A stretch of DNA of 12,525 bases, taken from IMG/VR virus record IMGVR_UViG_2711768034_000010. One strand, written 5' to 3'. Below the pieces are notes generated by a model. That model worked only from the letters and a program-made list of their open reading frames with translations. It had not been told where the DNA came from and searched no databases. A program made the position numbers and the translations under genes. The DNA is from a virus. Its lineage: Duplodnaviria > Heunggongvirae > Uroviricota > Caudoviricetes. This document shows, one piece after another, positions 12,287 through 12,488 of the stretch (positions within the stretch are counted from its first letter, which is position 1; each line of letters opens with the position of its first letter).

Positions 12287-12293
12287 TTCTTTG

Positions 12294-12325
12294 GCGTCGG
12301 AGCATGCTTCGGCGCTAGAATTTTT
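12294..12325 (+). terminator. Possible terminator after int (imperfect)
   Basis: Stem GCGTCGGAG (12294-12302), loop CATG, CTTCGGCGC (12307-12315) with two G-U pairs, then T5 at 12321-12325 after a 5-nt gap. Weak. Confidence 0.3.
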
Positions 12326-12352
12326 CTCAGTGGATTTTCTCAATTTTTCTCA
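12319..12352 (+). repeat. Direct repeats between int and attL (candidate arm-type Int-binding sites)
   Basis: AATTTTTCTCA at 12319-12329 and again at 12342-12352, with a third TTTTCTCA at 12335-12342. Confidence 0.35.
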
Positions 12353-12398
12353 TCGGGATGCAGGTCACTGAAAGGGAATGCTGTAAGTGTTTGAATAG

Positions 12399-12488
12399 TG
12401 GCGGAGAGAGGGGGATTTGAACCCCCGGTAGAGTTGCCCCTACTCCGGTTTTCGAGACCGGTCCGTTCAGCCGCTCCGGCATCTCTCC
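12399..12488 (-). tRNA. serU: tRNA-Ser, anticodon CGA
   Basis: Reverse complement is GGAGAGATGCCGGAGCGGCTGAACGGACCGGTCTCGAAAACCGGAGTAGGGGCAACTCTACCGGGGGTTCAAATCCCCCTCTCTCCGCCA. It has a 7-bp acceptor stem, anticodon loop CUCGAAA (anticodon CGA), long variable arm, TPsiC arm GGGGGTTCAAATCCCCC and 3' CCA. Confidence 0.9.

Follow-up and report, generated by a model that had tools for sequence, protein, structure and literature searches.

What does the short stretch between a phage integrase gene and a serine tRNA gene record, and what are the tandem repeats that lie in it? The window, by which we mean the whole 12,525-nucleotide stretch of DNA that was analyzed, holds a 5'-truncated tyrosine integrase gene (int) of the ST64B/KpF5 type. 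The int ORF has 324 codons and runs on the plus strand from 11312 to the TGA stop codon at 12284-12286. There is one tRNA-Ser(CGA) gene in the window, serU, at 12399-12488 on the minus strand (ARAGORN and Rfam; Rfam tRNA score, 57 bits). The two genes are convergent, with a 112-nt spacer between them (12287-12398). A sequence-only reading of this DNA had put the int stop at 12286 and the tRNA 3' CCA end at 12399, with the same spacer and orientation, and all of these coordinates hold in the ARAGORN, Rfam, and ORF analyses. Two minus-strand ORFs, 12327-12482 and 12340-12525, both overlap the tRNA and were taken as spurious.

We think that region 12287-12488 is very probably the int-proximal junction (BOP') of a temperate phage of the KpF5/ST64B type at E. 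coli serU, a decayed copy that retains putative Int arm sites. serU is a known prophage insertion site. We call this junction attL by the lambda convention, in which the name denotes the int-proximal BOP' junction; on the E. coli map, it lies on the right. The mechanism follows the lambda paradigm, and the arrangement is textbook and not new. For annotation, the locus is of value in showing exactly where a prophage remnant common at serU of E. coli ends.

The segment from int to the tRNA is 99.6% identical to Klebsiella phage KpF5, and the identity ends at 12460, inside the tRNA. The P' arm, the core, and the tRNA are 100% identical to KpF5. The window Int is 99.7% identical to the KpF5 Int and 86.6% identical to Sb28 of ST64B. 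It matches the Pfam Phage_integrase family (PF00589) over the cut-off, with an E value of 3.9e-10, and PF22022 under the cut-off. On the other side, positions 12461-12525 are bacterial DNA, made up of the serU 5' part and the flank upstream of it in the direction of mtfA, and match 5,423 of 5,426 E. coli genomes.

To locate the strand exchange, we aligned four att sequences: the window, the KpF5 attP, the empty serU of E. coli G3/10, and the yodB-side junction of E. coli 13P484A. Left of 12384, the window is phage DNA, and empty E. coli serU loci match it from 12384 rightwards only. Positions 12384-12398 are a phage version of the serU 3' flank, similar to the bacterial version but differing from it by three substitutions and one indel. 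The following 62 bp (12399-12460) are identical in all four sequences. This common core, shared by attP and attB, corresponds to tRNA positions 29 to 90 and extends from the anticodon stem (5' strand) to the CCA end. Phage-specific DNA reaches 12398 and bacterial DNA begins at 12461, and the far junction of 13P484A has the reciprocal composition. Therefore, strand exchange took place inside 12399-12460. The sequence-only reading had placed the junction in the tRNA and had set an empty-site comparison as a check; the comparison with the empty site and attP puts it in this block. The part of the tRNA that is present in attP extends from the anticodon stem to the 3' end. The serU gene in the window is thus a hybrid, bacterial in its 5' part (12461-12488) and phage-supplied in its 3' part; its sequence equals that of the empty site, so that the gene is restored and intact.

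The earlier reading had also assigned the crossover to the 3' half of the tRNA. Polymorphisms in a relative with the same core, the CP-933U type, support this assignment and refine it. In the CP-933U type, the tRNA segment departs from native serU at two positions, equivalent to 12430 and 12441 of the window. In E. coli O157:H7 E32511, the phage bases are found at the int-side junction and the native bases at the far junction. We located this far junction by blastn; the identity block there is 1 nt shorter, with phage DNA beginning after the equivalent of 12459. This pattern places the CP-933U-type exchange within 12442-12459, an 18-bp segment in which the 7-nt anticodon loop (12450-12456) lies between the 3' stem strand and a portion of the 5' stem strand. 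For the window's own Int, the limit of the exchange is the 62-bp block, as the 18-bp limit comes from a relative; by analogy with that relative, its crossover most likely lies in the anticodon stem-loop. In this case, the loop would be the overlap region, and the 5-bp stem arms given by the tRNA geometry (12445-12449 and 12457-12461), which are inverted, would act as the core-type sites. The attP tRNA block has the same end point, just past the anticodon loop, in all family members that were examined. The layout fits a class of tRNA-gene integration, the "anticodon-loop sublocation," reportedly defined by Williams in 2002.

We propose the following mechanism. A tyrosine-recombinase exchange would occur inside the 62-bp block, most likely in the anticodon stem-loop. 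The phage would supply a replacement 3' part of the tRNA, and the tRNA gene would therefore stay intact. The 112-nt spacer would be the phage P' arm, made up of the int terminator, three tandem WTTTTCTCA sites, and an IHF-like bend site. The WTTTTCTCA sequences would be arm-type sites bound by the small N-terminal domain of Int, and in an intact phage, an inverted and a direct site on the opposite arm would join them to complete a lambda-like intasome. The element has decayed to a remnant of about 14 kb and has lost xis and the basic tail of Int.

A search of the 12.5-kb window found no second copy of the tRNA 3' part, in agreement with the sequence-only reading, which had suggested that the other junction was either outside the window or deleted. 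The same element is found, as a remnant of about 14 kb between yodB and serU, in the complete genomes of E. coli 13P484A and PCN061. In both, the yodB side of the remnant has a 78-bp partial tRNA copy with a bacterial-type flank. Because this tRNA-derived repeat lies beside yodB in the sister genomes, we place the second junction outside the window; the far junction itself is demonstrated in these sister genomes. On the int side, intact prophages at E. coli serU share the junction seen here. Phages ev099, PhiR70_1, and mEp332 and the record SerU-LTIIb also carry a 78-bp serU segment; they were left out of the comparison because the segment is not beside a homologous int.

Is the junction still active? 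In intact relatives (KpF5, ST64B, and the E. coli serU prophages L016 and L017), a DUF4224/Sb29-type xis lies directly upstream of an int that encodes 330 aa. The intact Ints start with MGRKRAPGNEWMPKG, and the window Int starts with MLNEWMPKG. By blastn, the identity of the window to KpF5, L016, L017, and ST64B resumes at 11318, where an unrelated upstream ORF is fused to int. This deletion/fusion joint (11172-11318, plus strand) has removed xis and int codons 1 to 8 and, with them, the basic N-terminal tail of Int and any promoter within xis. According to the title of a 2009 report by Fadeev et al., cited in PMC4880445, the lambda N-domain is helped to recognize DNA by immobilization of a flexible tail. 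The complete genomes that carry the remnant show that it is about 14 kb long, versus 38 to 40 kb in intact relatives, and is without head and tail genes. Insertion sequences have also entered it. An IS2 end interrupts the remnant at the left edge of the window (1-305), and identity to the remnant in other genomes starts at 293; an IS2 end joined to the remnant at 293-305 was found in none of the complete E. coli genomes of our collection. 13P484A has ISKpn26, as well as IS1 beside the yodB-side junction, and PCN061 has IS1.

With xis and int codons 1 to 8 gone and insertion sequences in the element, we regard the junction as a probable fossil that is no longer active on its own. It would recombine only with Int and Xis provided in trans, and excised circles would not be expected otherwise. 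The alternative is that it belongs to a live, inducible prophage, for which excised circles and attP/attB products would be detectable. A live prophage would fit the complete identity of the P' arm, core, and tRNA to those of a viable phage, KpF5. It would also fit the open int reading frame and the far junction, which is intact along with both distal arm sites in genomes that share the remnant. However, we consider a live prophage highly unlikely in view of the missing xis, int start, and possible xis-borne promoter, the loss of head and tail genes from an element far shorter than its intact relatives, and the interruption by IS2 here and by IS1 or ISKpn26 in related copies.

We then turn from the decayed junction to the spacer, in which the sequence-only reading had noticed a probable terminator and three direct repeats. 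Both were recovered. The int intrinsic terminator spans 12290-12325 on the plus strand (terminator scan and RNA fold), with a hairpin at 12290-12319 and a T-run at 12321-12325. The hairpin has 13 pairs, is followed directly by ATTTTT, and has a free energy of -18.7 kcal/mol (z = -3.5). A GC-rich hairpin with a T-run is therefore found downstream of int, as expected of an intrinsic (Rho-independent) terminator. ST64B has a hairpin of different sequence at the same position, also followed by a T-run.

The repeat TTTTCTCA occurs at 12322-12329, 12335-12342, and 12345-12352, with a spacing of 13 and 10, and a longer form, AATTTTTCTCA, begins at 12319 and 12342. The whole 12.5-kb window has one further copy of TTTTCTCA only. 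Three copies of any 8-mer were present in the 112-nt spacer in 3 of 5,000 dinucleotide-preserving shuffles. Extended by one base, the repeats give three candidate arm-type Int sites on the plus strand, all of them conserved in ST64B: TTTTTCTCA at 12321-12329, the outermost of the P' array, which overlaps the terminator T-run; ATTTTCTCA at 12334-12342, in the middle; and TTTTTCTCA at 12344-12352, the innermost, which ends 46 bp before the tRNA 3' end. The outermost repeat doubles as the T-run of the terminator.

The other arm of the phage carries the same motif, which has no relation to the core sequence. In KpF5, TGAGAAAA, which is the motif inverted, lies 40 bp beyond the block, and ATTTTCTCA lies in direct orientation at +103. 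The full KpF5 attP therefore has five motif copies, the int-side trio in tandem and the two just described. None of 5,000 shuffles of the attP arms gave as many copies of a single 8-mer. All five copies are present in ST64B at identical offsets, one of them with a single mismatch. Between KpF5 and ST64B, 39 of 40 motif columns are identical, versus 46% of the other arm columns (Fisher, 8e-11). The whole 8-mer is kept in ST64B, not the T-run alone, and the spacers between the copies have changed.

Other relatives have the same layout with other motifs, namely, TATACCAA, ATGGCGAA, TATTAGGAA, and TATTCTAAG in Chris1, mEp390, ZF40, and BUCT708. Tandem copies next to the int stop are common to all six phages, which use five motifs, as is a copy in inverted orientation at +40 to +42; the direct copy, at +103 to +106, is found in five of the six, BUCT708 being the exception. 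The Ints of KpF5 and Chris1 use the same core with different motifs. The CP-933U type has ATTCCAAG in the same plan. In a survey of the family, at least three tandem copies were found within 110 nt of the int stop in 28 of 86 loci, versus 2 of 1,720 shuffles. The array spacing is 13 plus 11 in 20 loci and 13 plus 10 in 7 (27 loci together).

What protein would recognize these motifs? In lambda, the N-terminal domain of Int binds five arm-type sites, and the sites for IHF, Xis, and Fis lie between those and the core (PMC4880445). Lambda Int is the best PDB match of the window Int by sequence and by fold, and the alignment extends as far as the position of lambda Tyr342. Nine family members were combined in a profile, which aligns with lambda Int residues 1 to 342 in one stretch, with an E value of 3e-20. 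The full-length homologue P0001 (330 aa) was also modeled with AlphaFold2 (mean pLDDT, 86). In the model, strands at residues 16 to 19, 22 to 25, and 32 to 35 and a helix at residues 41 to 56 form a beta-beta-beta-alpha N-domain ahead of the core-binding domain, with block pLDDT values of 78 to 89 across residues 11 to 50. The top Foldseek matches of this model are full-length lambda Int chains, with about 335 aligned columns. The N-terminal 25 residues by themselves have no significant sequence match to lambda Int. The N terminus of the KpF5 and window Ints gave no match to PF09003, the lambda arm-binding domain, at an E value of 10 or less, and the best of four N termini scanned, that of a 606R7-type relative, reached an E value of 0.016 and 15.7 bits against a cut-off of 22. 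As PF09003 is unmatched, we claim homology and a shared fold but do not place the Int in that Pfam family. The profile match over the full length, together with the fold of the model, indicates that the family Int has a small N-terminal domain of the arm-binding type, which would be the part that binds the repeats.

Directionality factors often bind tandem direct repeats in att arms. The TTTTCTCA repeats could therefore be sites for an excisionase (recombination directionality factor) and not for Int. Xis/RDF sites typically consist of direct repeats in tandem, about one helical turn apart, and the intact relatives do encode a Xis beside int. We compared how well protein identity accounts for motif identity across the family. 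The AUCs are close, at 0.83 for the Int N-domain, 0.82 for the rest of Int, and 0.78 for Xis, so that motif identity is correlated with Xis identity as well. When all three are entered jointly in a logistic model, however, the first 45 residues of Int receive a coefficient of 1.27, the rest of Int one of 0.03, and Xis, which thus adds nothing, one of -0.05; these statistics overstate independence because the loci are phylogenetically related, and the test is weak alone. Natural recombinants among the loci give a clearer picture. Two Sodalis loci have nearly identical Xis sequences (by inspection) and N-domains that are 53% identical, and their motifs differ (TATACCAA versus ACGCTAAC). The motif TATACCAA is found with three unrelated Xis sequences. 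Moreover, the motif lies on both arms, three copies on one and two on the other with one inverted, which is the pattern of lambda Int arm sites, whereas the lambda Xis sites lie on one arm near the core (PMC4880445). We consider it highly improbable that the repeats are Xis sites.

The remaining alternative, that the repeats have no sequence-specific partner and are a by-product of the terminator T-run, curved phased T-tracts, or an AT-rich chance occurrence, draws on the first copy being the T-run and on T-runs phased at 10 to 13 bp, but the shuffles of the spacer and of the full attP, the retention of the whole 8-mer in ST64B between changed spacers, and the position of the mEp390 array ahead of a terminator-like hairpin make it exceedingly unlikely, and we reject the curved-DNA or terminator-only version because the same geometry is found in relatives whose motifs are not T-tracts (ATGGCGAA, TATACCAA, and ATAGTGAA).

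The repeats, in our judgment from sequence comparison, are thus almost certainly arm-type Int sites. The sequence-only reading had proposed P'-arm-type Int sites, and this proposal is supported by the copies on the other arm, their conservation in ST64B, the lambda-like three-plus-two layout, and the co-variation with the N-domain. A lambda-like attP layout is now documented for a widespread enterobacterial Int family, which includes Salmonella ST64B, KpF5-like phages of Klebsiella, and the O157:H7 tccP/espJ prophage. We found no description of the arm-type sites of ST64B, serU, mEp390, or ZF40 phages in the literature searched, and neither the arm motif nor the rule that pairs N-domain and motif appears in that literature. 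One paper on an ST64B attP concerns a different integrase, IntA, and arm sites are absent from it.

The pairing of N-domain and motif suggests a broader possibility. We put at about even the chance that the ST64B, KpF5, and CP-933U Ints form a natural panel of at least 10 arm-site specificities on one rigid attP scaffold, in which the motif is exchanged with the N-domain of about 45 residues, independently of Xis and of core (tRNA) specificity. The scaffold would consist of the triple array (13 plus 10 or 11), the inverted site at +40, and the direct site at +103. Example motifs of the panel are TTTTCTCA, TATACCAA, ATGGCGAA, ATAGTGAA, TATTAGGAA, ATTCCAAG, TTCTGAAA, and TATTCTAAG. One of them, TATACCAA, is found with cores in both tRNA-Ser(CGA) and tRNA-Ser(TGA). 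If the panel is real, a recognition code for lambda-type arm-binding domains could be read from sequence, and orthogonal pairs of integrase and arm site would be available. The pairing could also aid attP prediction and integrase engineering; the understanding of the mechanism would be unchanged.

We scanned the arms for IHF sites with the consensus WATCAANNNNTTR, allowing at most one mismatch; this consensus is weak. On the distal arm, matches lie at +72 to +74, between the two arm sites, in four of the six phages, and at +17 to +20, again in four of the six. On the P' side, an IHF-like element lies 3 bp from the tRNA 3' end in KpF5, ST64B, and Chris1. In the window, this is ATTCAAACACTTA at 12384-12396 on the minus strand, and the empty attB has a perfect IHF match, TATCAATGACTTA, at the same place. 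There are nine plus-strand matches in about 770 positions, and the probability that four fall in one 3-bp window is about 2e-5, before the choice of that window is considered. It is plausible that these predicted elements are analogues of H1, H2, and H', in which case this attP would use IHF.

The comparison with lambda shows where the two systems agree and where they differ. Lambda has a heterobivalent Int, the arm-type sites P1, P2, and P'1 to P'3, and the IHF sites H1, H2, and H'. Lambda Int, about 20% identical to the window-type Int, is homologous over the full length, including the N-terminal beta-sheet-plus-helix domain and the MGR+R basic tail. The same analysis applied to the lambda attP places the tandem array of three sites at -3, +8, and +18 relative to the int stop. 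On the other lambda arm, the nearer site is inverted and the farther site has the orientation of the array, so that the number and orientation of sites, three plus two, are as in KpF5. The putative IHF elements found here with the weak consensus likewise lie between the sites. In contrast, the core here is the 3' two-thirds of a tRNA gene (62-bp identity), whereas lambda has a 15-bp core and an intergenic attB. The arm motif is WTTTTCTCA here and C/AAGTCACTAT in lambda, and the other-arm sites are at about +48 and +111 here, versus +102 and +133 in lambda. The P' array is also farther from the presumed crossover, at about 100 to 130 bp versus 63 to 84 bp in lambda, an observation that speaks against the arm-site reading.

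Of the closer relatives, ST64B has the same Int N terminus in Sb28, a 62-bp serU-type tRNA block of the same extent in attP, and a terminator at the same place. Its core is the Salmonella version of the tRNA, with 11 differences in 77 aligned columns that include the 15-nt flank. Unlike the window, ST64B has intact xis and int. The CP-933U type (O157:H7, with tccP and espJ and an Int of the vB_EcoM-606R7 type) is a full-size lambdoid prophage that shares attB and core with the phage of the window. The two Ints are 59.6% identical, and their N-terminal domains differ in sequence, as do the arm motifs. By eye, in the far-junction sequence, the triple array has a spacing of 13 plus 10, with the inverted copy at about +42 and the direct copy at about +104 to +107. 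The array overlaps the last int codons.

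The 5' end of the integrase gene int is a fusion joint, at 11172-11318 of the window, which stands in place of the excisionase gene and int codons 1 to 8. An ORF of 52 to 56 aa lies upstream (11152 or 11164 to 11322), and the first int codons that remain overlap its stop codon. E. coli 13P484A and PCN061, two complete genomes that carry the remnant, have this joint too. The annotated int starts of the relatives Chris1 (locus L004, 154-1449) and Evi (L011, 1297-2184) are probably wrong. The Chris1 annotation is over-extended to 431 aa, as its start precedes the family start MGRPRK by about 88 codons, and the Evi annotation omits an N-terminal domain that is present in frame upstream. 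The CP-933U-type integrase at serU in O157:H7 strain E32511 (L099, int 835-1882) is frameshifted by annotation in that strain. In this locus the ATTCCAAG triple array, with a spacing of 13 + 10, overlaps the last int codons and is not placed after the stop.

Directly 3' of serU, the native E. coli sequence contains a perfect IHF consensus, TATCAATGACTTA (1201-1213 in the empty-site locus L003), and the phages have a one-mismatch version at the equivalent place (window 12384-12396). This element may account for the semi-conservation of the 15-nt serU 3' flank between attP and attB. Copies of serU sequence also occur elsewhere. RefSeq lists a 137-nt "tRNA-OTHER" at two comparison loci (L001, 32214-32350; L015, 4745-4881) that consists of the far-junction partial serU copy and adjoining phage DNA; this call is an annotation artefact from the att duplication. 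In the lambdoid phages ev099 (L005), PhiR70_1 (L006), and mEp332 (L007), a 78-bp serU segment with a bacterial-type 3' flank lies at about 1501-1578, with tail-fibre genes on one side; on the other come an AraC-like gene and then IS2. No homologous int adjoins the segment in these three phages. The segment may represent either a captured junction or an attP used by an int located far away.

At its left edge, the window begins inside an IS2 copy, the end part of which occupies 1-305. This IS2 was either inserted into the prophage remnant or truncates it, and it is absent at this position from all complete E. coli genomes in the collection. Within 1747-5197, a gene for a 687-aa SASA-domain (sialate O-acetylesterase) protein on the minus strand adjoins one for a 363-aa acyltransferase-3 family protein on the plus strand. 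The two resemble genes for a tailspike and for O-antigen modification (lysogenic conversion) that the remnant has kept. A possible defence or moron gene, a 389-aa ORF at 8373-9542, encodes an HSDR_N domain (type I restriction enzyme R-subunit N-terminal) and is flanked by a RacR-like repressor gene and a ParB-like gene. ISKpn26 replaces this stretch in 13P484A, whereas in PCN061 the stretch has an IS1 after it. The immunity-region remnant (6028-8217) encodes a Dam-type N6-adenine methylase, a CII-like regulator (Phage_CP76), a YdaS/Cro-like HTH protein, and a divergent 158-aa ORF that is annotated as the RacR repressor in the RefSeq copies.
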